Below are positions 1 to 7,061 of a DNA stretch of 7,355 bases, piece by piece (position 1 is the stretch's first letter; each line of letters begins with the position of its first letter). The notes beneath the pieces are model-generated. The model made no database searches. It was not told the DNA's origin and saw nothing but the letters and a program-made list of their open reading frames with translations. Position numbers and translations under genes: made by a program. This DNA comes from Dictyostelium discoideum (lineage: Eukaryota): NCBI GenBank assembly GCA_000004695.1, contig CH709171.1:1-7355 (forward strand), given 5' to 3'.

Positions 1-190
1 TACCCAAAAGGGATCGATCCCCCGACCCTCTATCAAAGGTAGTCTCATCAACCATTACACCATTTGATTGCTTTGATGAAAATTTAAAAATGATAGAATA
101 TTTTATCCCCATTTTTTTTTTCTAAAATTAGATCTTTTTTATTAAAAACCTTAAATTTATGTTTAAAGGAAATTTAAATTCACTTTAAAT

Positions 191-212
191 CTACTTTAAA
201 TCTACTTTAAAT
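191..212. repeat. Tandem 11-mer ctactttaaat x2, preceded by a partial cactttaaat unit. A2 carries x3 at 5629-5661.
   Basis: Seen in sequence. Confidence 0.8.
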
Positions 213-258
213 CCTATTTAAAATTAATTTAAAATAAATTTTAAAGGTATTTTTAAAT

Positions 259-329
259 ATCTTAAAAATTATCTTAAAAATTACCTTAAAAATCACCTTT
301 AAAATCACCTTTAAAATCACCTTTAAAAT
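259..329. repeat. Tandem units atcttaaaaatt x2, accttaaaaat, cacctttaaaat x3 (294-329). A2 has x4 of the last unit at 5743-5790.
   Basis: Seen in sequence. TTTAAA/TTAAAA cores recur with an 11-12 bp period. Confidence 0.8.
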
Positions 330-512
330 TGCTTAAAAATTTATTTTAAAGCAAATTTTAAAGGCATTTTTAAATATCTTAAAAATTACCTTAAAAATTA
401 CCTTAAAAATGAATTTTTTAAACGCGGCTTTAAATTCAATTTAAATCCAATTTAAATCAACTTTTCTTTAAATTTGCTTTAAAGGTTCATTTTTCTTTGC
501 TGTGTCGCTGTG

Positions 513-839
513 TACTTGTGTGACCCTTGAACACACAGAAATAATTAATAATAAATAATAAATAACAAATAATATTATATCTCTTATATAATATAATAAA
601 GCTTTCGTTTGTGCACAATTTGGAATAAAACAACAATGAATTAATTTTTATTTTATTTTCTATTTATACTAAAATTAATTTTACTAAAGAAACCATTGGT
701 AAAATTTCCGAGAATAAAGTAAGAATCTTGTATTTGTTAACGTCTTTTCAGTTACAAATTTATTTCTATATTTGTATTTTACCAGGGTTAAAAACTTTAT
801 ATATTAATTTATGTCGCTTAATTGTTCGCGATTATTACA
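513..839 (-). repeat. 3' LTR of the minus-strand element. It equals 5191-5517 with one mismatch (c709 vs t5387). The boundary may be 517 if the LTR begins TGTGTG on plus.
   Basis: Direct repeat of 5191-5517. In element orientation it begins TGTAATAATCG and ends GGGTCACACA(AGTA). The IN stop codon (818-820) lies inside it. Confidence 0.9.
661..668 (-). promoter_or_regulatory. TATAAATA box within the 3' LTR U3 region (minus strand). AATAAA motifs lie just downstream in element orientation.
   Basis: Plus tatttata is the reverse complement of TATAAATA. Position within the LTR is consistent with a U3 promoter. Confidence 0.45.
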
Positions 840-1669
840 CTCACCCCCGCTCTATTTGATTTTGGGAGTACTACAGGGAGTTGTGTTACAGCTTGACCAT
901 GTTGTGGTGTGCTAGTTGATGGTGGTGGACTCGATACTACAATACTTGGATTAACTAATCTGCTGAATGATAATTCATTCATTGATACTTGGGATGGTTG
1001 ATTTATGAATGAAGGTAATTGGTTCAATTTGTTTATTTTGTTGAAATATCTCTTGCAATTTCTTAATGACTGTGTTGTTGACATGTTTGAACCCAATGGT
1101 ACTTGTATTTGTATTGTTTGGTTTGAAAGTATCCTAACAACTTTAAACGGTCCAATCCAACTTGGTCTGAACTTCTTTAATTCTTCTTCTTTTACGGTTT
1201 GATTTTTCAAGAGTACATAATCTCCCGGTGAGATTGAATTCTTTCTTGTTTTTAATCCATCATAATATTGCTTCTGCTTTGTTTGAGATTCTTGAATTTT
1301 TGTTTTTGCAATCTCTAAACTTTTGTTGATTGTTTCTTCCAACTTTCCAACATAATTATCATTGGTTGTTGCTGAATTATTGAATGGATTTAATGTACCA
1401 AGATCACTTGGTATAGTTGCTTCTCTTCCATAAAGCATTGAGAATGGGCTTGCACCTGTTGATGTATGGACTGAGATTCGATATGCGAATAAACATGAAT
1501 CAAGATACAAATCCCACATAGTGTGAACTTCTTGTGTGAATGATTTTAACATAATTACGATGGTCTTATTGAACCTTTCAACTAATCCATCAGTCTGTGG
1601 GTGGTATGGGCTTGTATTTACTTTCTTTACTTTGAATAATTCATTTACACTACTTATAACTTTATTCAA
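818..1669 (-). CDS. pol: Integrase C-terminal part: third DDE residue (HPQTDGLVERFN), GPY/F module (WIGPFKV), S/P/T-rich tail. No chromodomain. The frame is actually open upstream to 1768. The listed start is TTG.
   Basis: Translation contains TSPYHPQTDGLVERFNKT and FRPSWIGPFKVV. The upstream extension reads IISRHGCPKRLLSDCGTSF. The stop codon lies inside the 3' LTR. Confidence 0.85.
   Translation of the reverse strand: MNKVISSVNELFKVKKVNTSPYHPQTDGLVERFNKTIVIMLKSFTQEVHTMWDLYLDSCLFAYRISVHTSTGASPFSMLYGREATIPSDLGTLNPFNNSATTNDNYVGKLEETINKSLEIAKTKIQESQTKQKQYYDGLKTRKNSISPGDYVLLKNQTVKEEELKKFRPSWIGPFKVVRILSNQTIQIQVPLGSNMSTTQSLRNCKRYFNKINKLNQLPSFINQPSQVSMNELSFSRLVNPSIVVSSPPPSTSTPQHGQAVTQLPVVLPKSNRAGVSVIIANN
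840..853 (-). promoter_or_regulatory. Polypurine tract AGAGCGGGGGTGAG immediately 5' of the 3' LTR (element orientation). It is embedded in the IN coding sequence.
   Basis: Plus ctcacccccgctct is the reverse complement of AGAGCGGGGGTGAG. It is followed directly by the LTR start TGTAAT. Confidence 0.75.
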
Positions 1670-2117
1670 GAATGATGTACCACAATCCGATAGTAATCTT
1701 TTTGGACAACCGTGTCTTGATATAATTAAATTTGAAGTAATGTATTGCTGTTGTTTCGGCAGTGCAATCTACGGTTGCTGCTGCTTCAACCCACTTCGTA
1801 ACATAATCTGAAAACACAATTATGTACTTATGACCTGACATTGATGGTACTTTCATTGGTCCAACGAAATCTACTGCAACCAAGTCCCATGGTTTCTCTA
1901 CTATAATGGTTCCCAACTCTGGTGAGAACTTACTGAATGGACTGGTTTTCATCTTTTGACATATATCACAATTGTTGATGTATTCTTTAACATCCATACC
2001 CATATTATTCCAGTAATATCTTGATGCTAACTTTGAGTAGGTCTTTTGATATCCAAGATGTCCGCCAACTAATGAACAGTCGTGGAACTTCTCTAATACT
2101 TCTTTTTGCATTGACAT
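1662..2117 (-). CDS. pol: Integrase N-terminal part: HHCC zinc finger (H-x3-H ... C-x2-C) and first two DDE aspartates. It starts at ATG 2117. It is out of frame with the downstream IN part.
   Basis: Motifs FHDCSLVGGHLGYQ...CDICQ; AVDFVGP; IIVFSDYVTKW. Confidence 0.85.
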   Translation of the reverse strand: MSMQKEVLEKFHDCSLVGGHLGYQKTYSKLASRYYWNNMGMDVKEYINNCDICQKMKTSPFSKFSPELGTIIVEKPWDLVAVDFVGPMKVPSMSGHKYIIVFSDYVTKWVEAAATVDCTAETTAIHYFKFNYIKTRLSKKITIGLWYIILE

Positions 2118-2179: not shown

Positions 2180-2680
2180 TTAATCTAAGTATTTAAAGAT
2201 TGGGACTAAGTGTTTATCTTTTCTTTGTTCCTCTGCAATCTTTAAGTCTAAGATTGAATCTAATTTGACTGATTCACCCATTGATATAACTGACATTACT
2301 TCTTCTACTGGACAACTACTAAGTGCGTCTGCAAAAGTATTCTCCTTACCACTTCTATATTTAAATGTGATATTGTAACTAGCCAACTTAACATTCCAAT
2401 TGATAAATCTCTTGTTTCTGATCTTCCCAAGATCATTTCTAAGGAATGATACTGCACTGTTATCAGTGACTACTAATGTTTCTTGGGTGCCAATGATATA
2501 ATGAAATTCTTCTAATGCACATACTACGCTTAAACATTCTTTTTCAGAGGCTGAGTAATTCTTTTCAGTGTCTCTGATGGTTCTTGAATAGAATGATATA
2601 ATACCGTGATCTTGACAAAGAGTTGCTCCAACACCGATATCACTTGCATCAGTTTCGAGTTTGAATGGTTTCTGAATCAA
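2180..2680 (-). CDS. pol: RNase H domain (TDASDIGVGATLCQ, SASEKECL, VVTDNSAV). In frame with RT but separated from it by a TAA at 2684-2686.
   Basis: Conserved Ty3/gypsy RNase H motifs. The listed start is TTG. Confidence 0.85.
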   Translation of the reverse strand: MIQKPFKLETDASDIGVGATLCQDHGIISFYSRTIRDTEKNYSASEKECLSVVCALEEFHYIIGTQETLVVTDNSAVSFLRNDLGKIRNKRFINWNVKLASYNITFKYRSGKENTFADALSSCPVEEVMSVISMGESVKLDSILDLKIAEEQRKDKHLVPIFKYLD

Positions 2681-2683
2681 TTG

Positions 2684-3631
2684 TTATGTATCTGGGTACA
2701 CTAAAATGATCTTATTGTTCTTCAACCTTTCGATTATATTGATACAGATTGACTTATAAGCGTCATTCCATTCGAATATGGTGTCTTGTCTTAATAATTG
2801 GTATATTGGTTTGATTTTTGATGCGAAATTATCTACAAATTTCCTGAAGAAATTTAATGTGCCGATCAATCTTTGTAATTCTTTTACATTCTTTGGATCT
2901 AATAACTTCATTAATGGATCTAGTCTATCATAATCTATTTGAACACCATTCGATTCTATGATATGACCTAAGAATTTTACTTCTTCTTGGAAAAATTGAC
3001 ATTTGCTCAATTTGGCTAACAGTTTATTATCTCTCATTTTCTTGAAGATACCTTCTAGATGTGGTGTATGATCCATTACTGATTTTGAGTGAGATAATAT
3101 ATCATCATAAAATGATTGTAAGGTAAGTCTATTCTCCTCTTTGAATATCTTGTGAATGGTCCTTTGGAAGACTGCTGGTGCATTACACAATCCAAATGGC
3201 ATTACATTGAATTCGAATAAACCTTGTGGTACTGAAAAGGCTGTTAAGTATTTATCACCTTCTCTAATTCGTATTTGATAGTATCCACTTATCATGTCTA
3301 ATTTTGAGTATACATGAGATCCTTTAATTTGATTCCATATTTCATTAATATCTGGTATTGGATATCGATCCTTTACAGTGATATTATTTAATTTTGTATA
3401 ATTAATACACATTCTCATACTCCCGTCTGGTTTTGGACGTAATACTACACTTGATGATACTTGACTATTTGATTCTCTTATAATCTTGTACTTTAATAAT
3501 TCTTTAATATGTTCATCTAAGAAGTCTTTTTGTTCATTTGTGAACTTCACTGGATATGCTTGAAATGATGCATCCTTTTGAGTTAACTTGATTTGATGTT
3601 CAACTCCACTAATCGCACCTGGTTCAGTCAA
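2684..3631 (-). CDS. pol: Reverse transcriptase (YPIPDI, LDMISGYYQI, MPFGLCNAP, FYDDIL, KCQFF..FLGHII). The frame is open upstream to 3655, with a stop at 3656-3658. It is -1 relative to gag.
   Basis: RT motifs in the translation. The listed M is a TTG codon. Confidence 0.9.
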   Translation of the reverse strand: MTEPGAISGVEHQIKLTQKDASFQAYPVKFTNEQKDFLDEHIKELLKYKIIRESNSQVSSSVVLRPKPDGSMRMCINYTKLNNITVKDRYPIPDINEIWNQIKGSHVYSKLDMISGYYQIRIREGDKYLTAFSVPQGLFEFNVMPFGLCNAPAVFQRTIHKIFKEENRLTLQSFYDDILSHSKSVMDHTPHLEGIFKKMRDNKLLAKLSKCQFFQEEVKFLGHIIESNGVQIDYDRLDPLMKLLDPKNVKELQRLIGTLNFFRKFVDNFASKIKPIYQLLRQDTIFEWNDAYKSICINIIERLKNNKIILVYPDT

Positions 3632-4365
3632 TGTATTTGTGAATACATCCTGGGACTAACTCTCTTTAAATCTTGCTGGTTTGTTGTAAAAGATACTTGT
3701 TCAGTAATGGTATTGACTTCTTCTTTGCACTGATTTGCAAAGTGACCAAGCTTGCCACATTTATAACATTTAAGTGGTTTCCCTTTTGGTTTGTTTTTAT
3801 ATTGGTGTTTTTTAACGTTTGCATAATTGTTCTGTTCTTGTTTAACATTATAATCAGGGTGTTTACCTGATGGTGGAAATGGTATCCTGGTTGGTCTTAT
3901 AACTTGTTGTTGTCGTTGAATTTGGGGTTGTTGGTCTTGTACGTTATTATTGATTCTATTTTCTTTATCAATAAATTTGTCTGTAAATCCAGCATTGTAA
4001 AATTCTAAGCTATCATACTTGAATTTTGAATTTGCTTTTGTACGAGCTATCATTATAGCCTCATCTAATAATTTTGGTGCACCTTCGTCAATTGACTTTT
4101 TGATTTCTATATCACTGACCCCTCTAATAAATAATTCAATTTGTCTTTCACTGGTTAATGGAGGATTGATTTGAGCATTGAGTGATCCAAATGCTGTGAT
4201 GTACTTCATGAATTTATCAAATTTTTGATCGGTGAGTTTTGATAATTCATCTTCTGGTTTAAAAAATTTCTTCATATCATATCTTTTAATCATTTCTTTT
4301 TTTAAATCATTATAATTTTCTACTATTTTTGATTTTTGAATAAAAGTAGTTAATGCTGAACCCAA
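3628..4365 (-). CDS. gag: Gag, with CCHC zinc knuckle CYKCGKLGHFANQC near the C-terminus. The first in-frame ATG is at 4293. The frame stays open upstream to 4581, reading through poly-A as poly-Lys.
   Basis: CX2CX4HX4C motif. The ORF start at 4365 is TTG. The upstream extension has no ATG. Confidence 0.8.
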   Translation of the reverse strand: MGSALTTFIQKSKIVENYNDLKKEMIKRYDMKKFFKPEDELSKLTDQKFDKFMKYITAFGSLNAQINPPLTSERQIELFIRGVSDIEIKKSIDEGAPKLLDEAIMIARTKANSKFKYDSLEFYNAGFTDKFIDKENRINNNVQDQQPQIQRQQQVIRPTRIPFPPSGKHPDYNVKQEQNNYANVKKHQYKNKPKGKPLKCYKCGKLGHFANQCKEEVNTITEQVSFTTNQQDLKRVSPRMYSQIH

Positions 4366-4501
4366 AAAATATTTAATTATTTTTCTTTTGACTTCATTAT
4401 ATTCTCCATTATTTTCACCAGTGATTTCGATATATTCAAATAGTGTTGAAATATTTAATGACTCTAAGTCATTATCAGCAAAATAAATTTTATTTTTTGC
4501 C

Positions 4502-4557
4502 TTTTTTTTTTTTTTTTTTTTTTCTTTTTGAGAGGTTTTTTTTTTTTTTTTTTTTTT
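4502..4557. repeat. Two 22-nt poly-T tracts on plus (4502-4523 and 4536-4557), i.e. poly-A in the element leader. They lie in frame upstream of gag.
   Basis: Seen in sequence. Confidence 0.9.
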
Positions 4558-4569
4558 CTTGAAAAGTGT

Positions 4570-4983: not shown

Positions 4984-5022
<39 letters not shown>

Positions 5023-5050
5023 CCCCAACCGAAACTATTATTTTTTTTTT
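4973..5050. repeat. Homopolymer cluster: T12 (4973-4984), T34 (4989-5022), T10 (5041-5050).
   Basis: Seen in sequence. Confidence 0.9.
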
Positions 5051-5177
5051 CTTATTTATAAACCTCTCCTAATGTGATTGTTGTTTTTATTATTACTATT
5101 ATTATTATTTGTTGACCGATGTCGCCAAATGTAATGAACGTCGTATTCCAATTCCTATGGGATACTCTTTATAATTT

Positions 5178-5193
5178 GTATATACGTATATAC
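5178..5193. repeat. 16-bp perfect palindrome GTATATACGTATATAC at the 5' LTR / internal-region boundary, where a PBS is expected.
   Basis: The reverse complement equals the sequence itself. It overlaps the first 3 nt of LTR2. Confidence 0.85.
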
Positions 5194-5517
5194 TTGTGTG
5201 ACCCTTGAACACACAGAAATAATTAATAATAAATAATAAATAACAAATAATATTATATCTCTTATATAATATAATAAAGCTTTCGTTTGTGCACAATTTG
5301 GAATAAAACAACAATGAATTAATTTTTATTTTATTTTCTATTTATACTAAAATTAATTTTACTAAAGAAACCATTGGTAAAATTTCTGAGAATAAAGTAA
5401 GAATCTTGTATTTGTTAACGTCTTTTCAGTTACAAATTTATTTCTATATTTGTATTTTACCAGGGTTAAAAACTTTATATATTAATTTATGTCGCTTAAT
5501 TGTTCGCGATTATTACA
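5191..5517 (-). repeat. 5' LTR of the minus-strand element.
   Basis: Direct repeat of 513-839 with 326/327 identity. It ends ...gattattaca at 5517 and is followed directly by repeat A2. Confidence 0.9.
5339..5346 (-). promoter_or_regulatory. TATAAATA box in the 5' LTR, the likely element promoter.
   Basis: Same position as 661-668 in the other LTR. Confidence 0.45.
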
Positions 5518-5963
5518 AAATTTAAAAATGATAGAATATTTTATCCCCATTTTTTTGTTCTAAAATTAGATCTTTTTTATTAAAAACCTTAAATTTATGT
5601 TTAAAGGAAATTTAAATTCACTTTAAATCTACTTTAAATCTACTTTAAATCTACTTTAAATCCTATTTAAAATAAAATTAAAATAAATTTTAAAGGTATT
5701 TTTAAATATCTTAAAAATTATCTTAAAAATTACCTTAAAAATCACCTTTAAAATCACCTTTAAAATCACCTTTAAAATCACCTTTAAAATTGCTTAAAAA
5801 TTTATTTTAAAGCAAATTTTAAAGGCATTTTTAAATATCTTAAAATTACCTTAAAAATTACCTTAAAAATGAATTTTTTAAACGCGGCTTTAAATTCAAT
5901 TTAAATCCAATTTAAATCAACTTTGCTTTAAATTTGCTTTAAAGGTGCATTTTTCTTTGCTGT
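5518..5963. repeat. Direct repeat A2 (446 bp), a copy of A1. It starts immediately after the 5' LTR.
   Basis: Aligns with 79-503. It has extra ctactttaaat and cacctttaaaat units and two 1-nt deletions. Confidence 0.85.
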
Positions 5964-6141: not shown

Positions 6142-6187
6142 ATTAAAAAGCTAATTTTTAAGGTACAAAGCGAAGAAAAATGCACCT

Positions 6188-6240
6188 TTAAAGCCAATTT
6201 AAAGCAAATTCAATTTAAATTTGCTTTAAATTGGCTTTAA
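6188..6240. repeat. 23-bp perfect inverted repeat (ttaaagccaatttaaagcaaatt / aatttgctttaaattggctttaa) with a 7-bp spacer. It sits inside a degenerate A-like segment (~6180-6300).
   Basis: Arms 6188-6210 and 6218-6240 are exact reverse complements. Confidence 0.85.
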
Positions 6241-6839
6241 TGATGCTTTTTAAAAAGGTAATTTTAAAGATATTTTTAAGGTCATTTAAAATTTAATTAA
6301 TTTATAATTTAAAAAAGTTATTTTTAATGTAATTTAAAATTACTTAATAATATGCATGCCACACATGTGACAAACCAAGAGATGGTTTATTTATTTGCCA
6401 TTCAGGTACATTAAGAAAACAAGAAGATATTACAAATTTTCACTCCAACAAACCAAATTATGCTGAATTAAATGCTGATATAGAATAAAAAAAAGTATGG
6501 GAAAAAAAAGCAAAAGATATTGGTATCAAAGGTGTGGGCAGAGGGTGAGTCGAACCTTTGTCCATTAATTATTTAAAAACACAACCAGTCATATTACATA
6601 ATATTTTATTAGGTGTCGCACAAAGATGTTTAAATTACATTTTTGATAAATATAAAAATAAAATTGCAAATTTTTTAAATAATTTAAAAAATGCAAAAAT
6701 AATAGTAACAAACCAAAACCATCAATTTCACTATTTGCAAATAAAACAAGGAAGAGAGAATATTATATTACCTTTTAATATCAATTAAGATTCAAATATC
6801 AAATGATAATTTTTTAATTATGGAACAATTAGTAACTAT

Positions 6840-7061
6840 ATGTTTAAATTATATAGTTACTCTTTTGATGAAAATGATTTAAATTCACTTCAAGTATTAA
6901 TTGAATCGTTTAATGCAAAAGGAAATTTAATTACTGTAACAGAAATAATGAATTTCCACATGTTGTTACATTATCCAATCTATATAGAAAATTGGGTGCA
7001 CCAAAATACACTTCAGCTGAAACTTTTGAAGCACAATTATCAAGAATTAAAAATTATTTAA
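6840..7061 (+). CDS. ATG-initiated ORF (73 aa). It may be exon 1 or the N-terminal part of the downstream gene. It overlaps the long frame that starts at 6914.
   Basis: True ATG at 6840. Protein-like N-terminal half (MFKLYSYSFDENDLNSLQVLIESFNAKGNLITVTEIMNFH). Confidence 0.35.
   Translation: MFKLYSYSFDENDLNSLQVLIESFNAKGNLITVTEIMNFHMLLHYPIYIENWVHQNTLQLKLLKHNYQELKII

Follow-up and report, generated by a model that had tools for sequence, protein, structure and literature searches.

DGLT-A stands for Dictyostelium gypsy-like transposon A, a family treated by Glöckner in 2001, Spaller in 2016 and Kling in 2018. Internally deleted, non-autonomous LTR retrotransposons include the gag-defective BARE-2 of barley, as well as deletion derivatives of Ty elements and of retroviral proviruses. 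The operational trait used by Spaller et al. (2016) for DGLT-A is the absence of a chromodomain from the C-terminal extension of the integrase (PMC5006619), and integration takes place 13–33 bp upstream of tRNA genes (PMC5006619). The Skipper elements have separate gag and pol ORFs, a chromodomain following the integrase, and a polypyrimidine tract that replaces the primer-binding site (PBS) (PMC5006619). In the 1437-aa DGLT-A polyprotein, Kling et al. assigned residues 231–425 to the protease (PR) (PMC6101501); DGLT-A is also listed with GAG, reverse transcriptase (RT), RNase H (RNH) and integrase (IN) only (PMC5006619, PMC5633606), and this omission of PR may have favoured the notion that the element has no protease. 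The D. discoideum copies of DGLT-A were all described as incomplete (PMC5006619, PMC5633606) and are probably inactive (PMC5006619).

In the present study, we analysed a stretch of 7,355 nucleotides of D. discoideum AX4 (hereafter, the window), for which a first-pass annotation had reported no recognisable aspartic protease between the zinc knuckle of gag and RT. Comparisons with related loci indicate that the window very probably carries one degenerate DGLT-A-type Ty3/gypsy copy, in which PR was lost by an internal deletion of 739 nt.

Results

The retroelement occupies the minus strand, and the Pfam map of window and strand gives gag, RT, RNase H and IN in this order. The element is bounded by direct repeats, 5517→5191 and 839→513, that are identical at 326 of 327 positions, with the sole mismatch at 5387. 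The true 3′ end of the LTR, …TTATTACA, was set from the complete LTR pairs of two related loci (L005 and L008), which continue through to this sequence. With the LTR extent TGTAATAA…TTATTACA, as seen in complete pairs of the related loci, the 5′ LTR spans 5130..5517 (5517→5130; 388 bp, TGTAATAA…CATTACA), and the 3′ LTR (513..839) lacks the last 61 bp, compared to the full LTR ends of the relatives. The flanking repeat (“A”) was also considered as a part of the LTR, and this was rejected because the complete LTR pairs of L004, L005 and L008 start at TGTAATAA. A PBS-like stretch, TGGCGACATCGG (5116..5127, minus strand), read from the sequence, is located 2 nt past the 5′ LTR, is kept in L001–L005 and L008, and is followed by a long A-rich leader, while a purine-rich tract, AGAGCGGGGGTGAG, lies before the 3′ LTR. 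Direct LTRs of the TG…CA type, a PBS after the 5′ LTR and a purine-rich tract are thus all present, as in Ty3/gypsy elements generally. Compared to the Ty3/gypsy domain order gag–PR–RT–RNase H–IN, PR is absent; this is specific to the window copy and is not a trait of the family.

The 5′ leader, from the PBS to gag, is about 610 nt long and holds two long A/purine homopolymer tracts (window 4505-4560 and 4985-5040, in the minus-strand sense). It should also be noted that, where the 3′ LTR stops 61 bp early, 9 nt (CACAGCGAC, 504-512) join position 513 to a full copy of the flanking repeat; this join could be the result of insertion of the repeat into the LTR, of recombination, or of mis-assembly of a repeat-only contig.

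The gag frame (3628..4503, read 4503→3628 on the minus strand; Pfam Retrotrans_gag, E=2.1e-5, and zf-CCHC, E=5.1e-7) includes the capsid domain (~4338→4114) and the zinc knuckle CYKCGKLGHFANQC (3768→3727, the zf-CCHC match), and it stops 32 codons past the knuckle. The end of this tail, past the deletion junction, consists of eight out-of-context codons, PRMYSQIH*. The RT frame (2687..3655, minus strand; RVT_1, E=1e-33) is −1 relative to gag, the gag end and the RT start being 2 nt apart, and the encoded RT is 97% identical to that of the related locus L004 (tblastn). RNase H (2183..2683, minus strand; RT_RNaseH, E=8.3e-25) ends at a second internal deletion. The integrase (818..2117, minus strand), with an H2C2 zinc finger, the rve core and a GPF motif, is split by a frameshift near 1669; its conceptual translation matches Integrase_H2C2 (3.4e-21), rve (1.6e-6) and SH3_Tf2-1 in Pfam, and has no Chromo match at E≤1. 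The C-terminal part of the integrase is 100% identical to DDB_G0294336 of D. discoideum AX4.

The sequence between the knuckle and RT was scrutinised for any trace of a protease. The first-pass annotation placed the end of gag about 30 residues past the knuckle, described pol as opening straight into RT motifs, and reported no retropepsin signature in gag or in the pol N-terminus. Our analysis confirmed all three points: the tail comprises 32 codons, the frame starting at 3655 leads directly into RVT_1 and RNase H, and D-[ST]-G tripeptides are absent from all frames of the window. The profile search that the same annotation proposed returned no RVP, RVP_2, Asp_protease or gag-asp_proteas match at E≤10 in gag, in pol, and in three minus-strand frames of 5200→3400 with masked (X) stop codons. 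An HMM built from the protease of the relatives, run with filters off (--max) over six frames of the whole window, reached −0.4 bits at best, and tblastn searches for PR in the window at E≤100 gave noise only. Nothing in the window corresponds to a retropepsin, i.e., a profile-detectable fold of ~100 aa with a D-T/S-G loop. The segment SIDEGAPKL (4095→4069), which had been put forward as the closest protease match, is a capsid motif and not a protease remnant: it falls within the Retrotrans_gag/Ty3_capsid match, and the relatives keep it as AIDEG.P..L.

Relatives were obtained with a gag query, which returned a handful of Dictyostelium proteins, and the loci encoding them were compared with the window. 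Several of these relatives contain Asp_protease_2/gag-asp_proteas after the knuckle, where they read …DLKRVSLYGVLLINDQPTRCLIDTGST…KYQDVFTNTL…, and also …CKEEINTITEQVSFTTNQQDLKRVSLYGVLLINDQPTRCLIDTGSTITMIH…LIIKYQDVFTNTLIEPGVISGVEHQ…. About 246 codons separate “DLKRVS” from “YQDVFTNTL” in L001, L004, L005, L006 and L008, and this stretch holds a retropepsin, LIDTGST…LLGIN. By tblastn, each of the five other copies that cover both gag and RT (L001, L004, L005, L006 and L008) has PR directly between the two; in the rearranged L002, the first 57 PR codons follow gag and are succeeded by an inverted copy of gag. For example, the L004 segment that is absent from the window translates to LYGVLLINDQPTRCLIDTGSTMTMIH…FKCLLGINTLKV… and an acidic linker, and has Pfam matches to gag-asp_proteas (4.7e-13), Asp_protease_2 (1.7e-10), RVP_2 (1.7e-6) and RVP (1.4e-3). 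An uninterrupted frame of 635 aa runs from the gag C-terminus through PR to RT in L008, and gag, PR and RT share one frame in L004; therefore, the organisation of the family appears to be a single ORF, which deletions and frameshifts have broken up in the window copy.

Some of the relatives have lesions of their own. The catalytic motif of PR is mutated to LIGTGST in L001 (~9168) and to LIDTSST in L008 (~6770). The LTRs of L004 are 100% identical over the 369 bp retained by both, yet its PR contains an in-frame stop and several frameshifts are present. Either the family contains many decaying copies, or indel errors are present in the long-read assemblies.

Direct comparison with these loci locates the deletion in the window and defines its breakpoints. 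Colinearity of the window with L004, L005, L001 and L008 extends through gag to 3654/3655, then resumes at 3657/3652 and continues through RT; in BLASTN alignments, window 4540→3654 corresponds to L004 9461–10329, and window 3657→2184 to L004 11065–12524. The segment absent from the window is 739 nt in L004 and L008, 744 nt in L005 and 675 nt in L001. The junction (3653..3657, minus strand) reads …AGAGTTAGT|CCCAGGATG…, compared to the intact flanks …AGAGTTAGT|TTGTATGG… and …AATTAAGT|ACCAAGATG…, and the break falls within a microhomology of 3–5 nt, AGT or T(T/A)AGT. The lost 739 nt (246 codons plus one nucleotide) comprise the whole protease and the PR–RT linker, between the …DLKRVS codons just past the knuckle and YQDVFTNTL… at the start of RT. 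Because 739 equals 3n+1, the gag frame runs into a stop eight codons past the junction and RT is placed in the −1 frame; the gag stop and the overlapping −1 pol ORF are by-products of this deletion. A programmed −1 frameshift organisation was considered and rejected, since the relatives carry one continuous frame; no X XXY YYZ slippery heptamer was seen by eye near the gag stop. Splicing of genomic RNA is an unlikely cause of the deletion, as no placement of the breakpoints within the microhomology yields GT…AG ends.

The PR-bearing relatives have 81–86% DNA identity to the window in gag, and L001 has 93% in RT. The subfamily of the window is represented by one copy of ~97% identity, L003, which is truncated before the junction, and neither the first seven related loci nor a metagenome contig collection contained the junction 22-mer.

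The same comparisons reveal that, besides the 739-nt loss, the window copy carries five lesions: an ATG→AAG change of the gag start, an insertion with a TAA, a 91-nt deletion, the integrase frameshift near 1669 and the truncated 3′ LTR. The gag start (4503–4501) reads AAGGCAAAAAAT in the window versus ATGGCAAAAAAT in L003. An in-frame TAA (2684..2686, minus strand) lies in a 12-nt insertion at the RT/RNase H boundary, such that the window reads YPDT*QLIQKPFKLETDA, compared to YPDTKKPFKLETDA in the relatives. At the second internal deletion, 91 nt are gone between 2184 and 2183, according to BLASTN breakpoints versus L004, L005 and L008; short microhomology is found at both internal deletions. 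The window copy is dead, in agreement with the published incompleteness of all D. discoideum DGLT-A copies. Since at least five disabling lesions add to the 739-nt loss, it represents a decayed copy and not a protease-less lineage.

A repeat of ~425–447 bp is present in direct orientation on either side of the element (window 79-503 and 5518-5963; 93.5% identity). It is rich in 11–12-bp tandem units of the TTTAAAT type and begins with (C)ACAGCAAAGAAAAATG. An inverted partial copy is located at 6169-6296, with a palindrome at 6176-6251, and L003 holds an inverted copy of the repeat end, suggesting terminal inverted repeats. A unit of the repeat is also inserted inside gag in L003, so that the repeat appears to be a separate mobile element. 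To the right, at 6558-7061 (plus strand), there are two short ORFs of 76 and 73 aa, with no Pfam match.

Five copies of the LTR element start at one and the same position of this repeat, …AAATTT|TGTAATAA (window 5517/5518, L001 7986/7987, L003 5357/5358, L005 6803/6804 and L008 5445/5446). In L005 and L008, the rest of the repeat is found downstream of the 3′ LTR, and 4 bp, ATTT, are duplicated. A-box-like (TGGTGTAATGG) and B-box-like (GGATCGA[A]TCC) motifs occur in a stretch (window 60→1) that lies 10–15 nt downstream of the site, which could be a recurrent target of the pol III type. No tRNA gene was called beside the element in the window by ARAGORN or Rfam, and the A-box/B-box-like stretch gave no tRNA call with ARAGORN, or with Rfam on parts of L003 and L005. 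The related copy of D. cf. discoideum (L002 7348-7445) starts 12 nt before the 5′ end of a gene for tRNA-Tyr(GTA), at the classic target position of DGLT-A and Ty3-like elements.

Discussion

According to the model that we favour, intact members of the family would translate gag, a DTGS retropepsin, RT, RNase H and integrase as a single ORF. The deletion of PR and the linker leaves an arrangement that mimics a gag/pol frameshift organisation without PR. The microhomology at the junction points to template switching by RT as the most likely route of deletion formation, or else to replication slippage or end joining. Template switching may date to the replication round that made the window copy, whereas slippage or end joining would be later. 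Of the two options left by the first-pass annotation, a protease-less element relying on a trans-acting or host protease, or a PR diverged beyond recognition, what survives is that this copy has no protease. A protease-less, trans-dependent design is unsupported, as gag-PR-RT-RNH-IN appears to form one ORF in the family, and the window is this arrangement minus 739 nt.

The divergent PR is rejected, because the gag end and the RT start are separated by only 2 nt and the relatives have a DTGS retropepsin at the same place. That a protease persists in the window in a highly divergent form, or elsewhere in the element, is hardly credible; the general difficulty of recognising short retropepsins is all that speaks for it, whereas the 32-residue tail past the knuckle could not accommodate a fold of ~100 aa, the Pfam (E≤10) and filter-free family HMM searches over six frames were negative, no D[ST]G is found in the window, and the PR of the relatives is easily recognised. 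It is also highly improbable that the deletion is an assembly artefact of a short, repeat-only contig. In favour of an artefact, the window is a 7355-bp unplaced AX4 contig, nearly all of which is repeats; against it, the junction is in unique coding sequence, its 3–5 nt microhomology is not a collapse-prone repeat, and genuine decay is evident from the other, 91-nt deletion and from the point lesions.

A different possibility, corresponding to the trans-acting option of the first-pass annotation, is that the form without PR is a non-autonomous derivative, for which reverse transcription and integration followed the deletion, with intact members of the family providing gag, PR, RT and IN in trans. 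The 326/327 identity of the LTRs despite some six disabling internal lesions suggests that some of the lesions predate the insertion, and one mismatch in 327 positions is hard to square with slow in situ decay; the 5′ LTR, the PBS and the sequence up to the start of the 3′ LTR are intact, and the microhomology at the junction fits template switching by RT. Conversely, the junction occurs at no other locus among the first seven relatives and the metagenome collection, PR is retained in L008 and in every other copy spanning gag to RT, the 3′ LTR of the window copy is truncated, and the published D. discoideum copies of DGLT-A are all incomplete and probably inactive (PMC5006619); moreover, the LTR identity may also be due to gene conversion or to a very low mutation rate in the host. 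We consider such mobilisation in trans quite unlikely. Unlikely, too, is the broader scenario of a PR-less copy that was born or moved non-autonomously with trans-complementation, within an uncatalogued AX4 lineage of the DGLT-A type homing to a fixed site that lies upstream of a tRNA-like module (A-box/B-box) in another repeat. A copy-specific deletion in a decayed element is the interpretation that we retain.

These results call for caution in interpreting single copies: a gag stop and an overlapping −1 RT frame without a protease mimic an unusual genome organisation, which in this case results from the loss of 3n+1 nucleotides in a single dead copy. The family keeps a conventional retropepsin; thus, Ty3/gypsy polyprotein processing needs no revision. 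A copy-specific internal deletion in a decayed retrotransposon is an event of an already known kind. It should be noted that cartoons of DGLT-A in print sometimes omit PR, and the relatives analysed here have a clear DTGS protease. Of minor value is the finding that the copy belongs to a DGLT-A-type lineage unlike the published D. discoideum consensus.

Comparison with Known Families

The window copy resembles internally deleted LTR retrotransposons in that LTRs and cis signals are kept, a part of the coding region is lost and the breakpoint lies in microhomology. Deletion derivatives of the BARE-2 type differ in being propagated families, with many copies per deletion, whereas one copy with the present junction is known.

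Skipper-1 and Skipper-2, the Dictyostelium chromoviruses, share with the window element the host, the Ty3/gypsy domain order and a gag with a CCHC knuckle; the chromodomain, the separate gag ORF and the polypyrimidine tract of Skipper are all absent from the window element.

By the definition of Spaller et al., i.e., no chromodomain, the window element is of the DGLT-A type. This assignment is further supported by the apparently single ORF of the relatives, by a PBS that starts with TGGCGACATCG and by the location of the L002 copy 12 nt upstream of tRNA-Tyr. The similarities to DGLT-A comprise the apparently single gag-PR-RT-RNH-IN ORF in intact relatives of the window copy, a CX2CX4HX4C knuckle, the lack of a chromodomain, and a PBS beginning with TGGCGACATCG, 2 nt past the 5′ LTR. 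The first 11 nt of the PBS-like stretch are those of the published DGLT-A PBS, TGGCGACATCGTCTTTC (PMC5006619), after which the window diverges (TGGCGACATCGGTCAAC). The conceptual polyprotein is ~1430 aa long, compared to 1437 aa published for DGLT-A (PMC6101501).

Among the differences, the window copy is without PR, through the deletion, its LTR is 388 bp versus 265 bp, and its 5′ leader, at ~610 nt, far exceeds the untranslated length that follows from the published 5054-bp DGLT-A consensus. In the GPY/F region, the window reads ISPGDYVLLKNQTVKEEELKKFRPSWIGPFKVV, compared to IQTGDFVYLHTPYSQTSIGPKFYKPWRGPFKVQ in the published Dd_DGLT-A (Fig. S1, PMC5006619; OCR text of the figure). Three LTR families are catalogued in D. 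discoideum, namely Dd_DGLT-A, Skipper-1 and Skipper-2 (Fig. S1, PMC5006619), and the GPY/F sequence of the window differs from all of them. As far as the OCR text of Figs. S1 and S2 (PMC5006619) can be read, the GPY/F block and the RNH/IN lines of the window differ clearly from those of Dd_DGLT-A, Dd_Skipper-1 and Dd_Skipper-2, and look nearer to the DGLT-A lines of D. purpureum and D. lacteum. Judged by these sequences, the window represents a DGLT-A-type lineage other than the published Dd_DGLT-A consensus, which may be an uncatalogued or differently named DGLT-A type, possibly DGLT-B.
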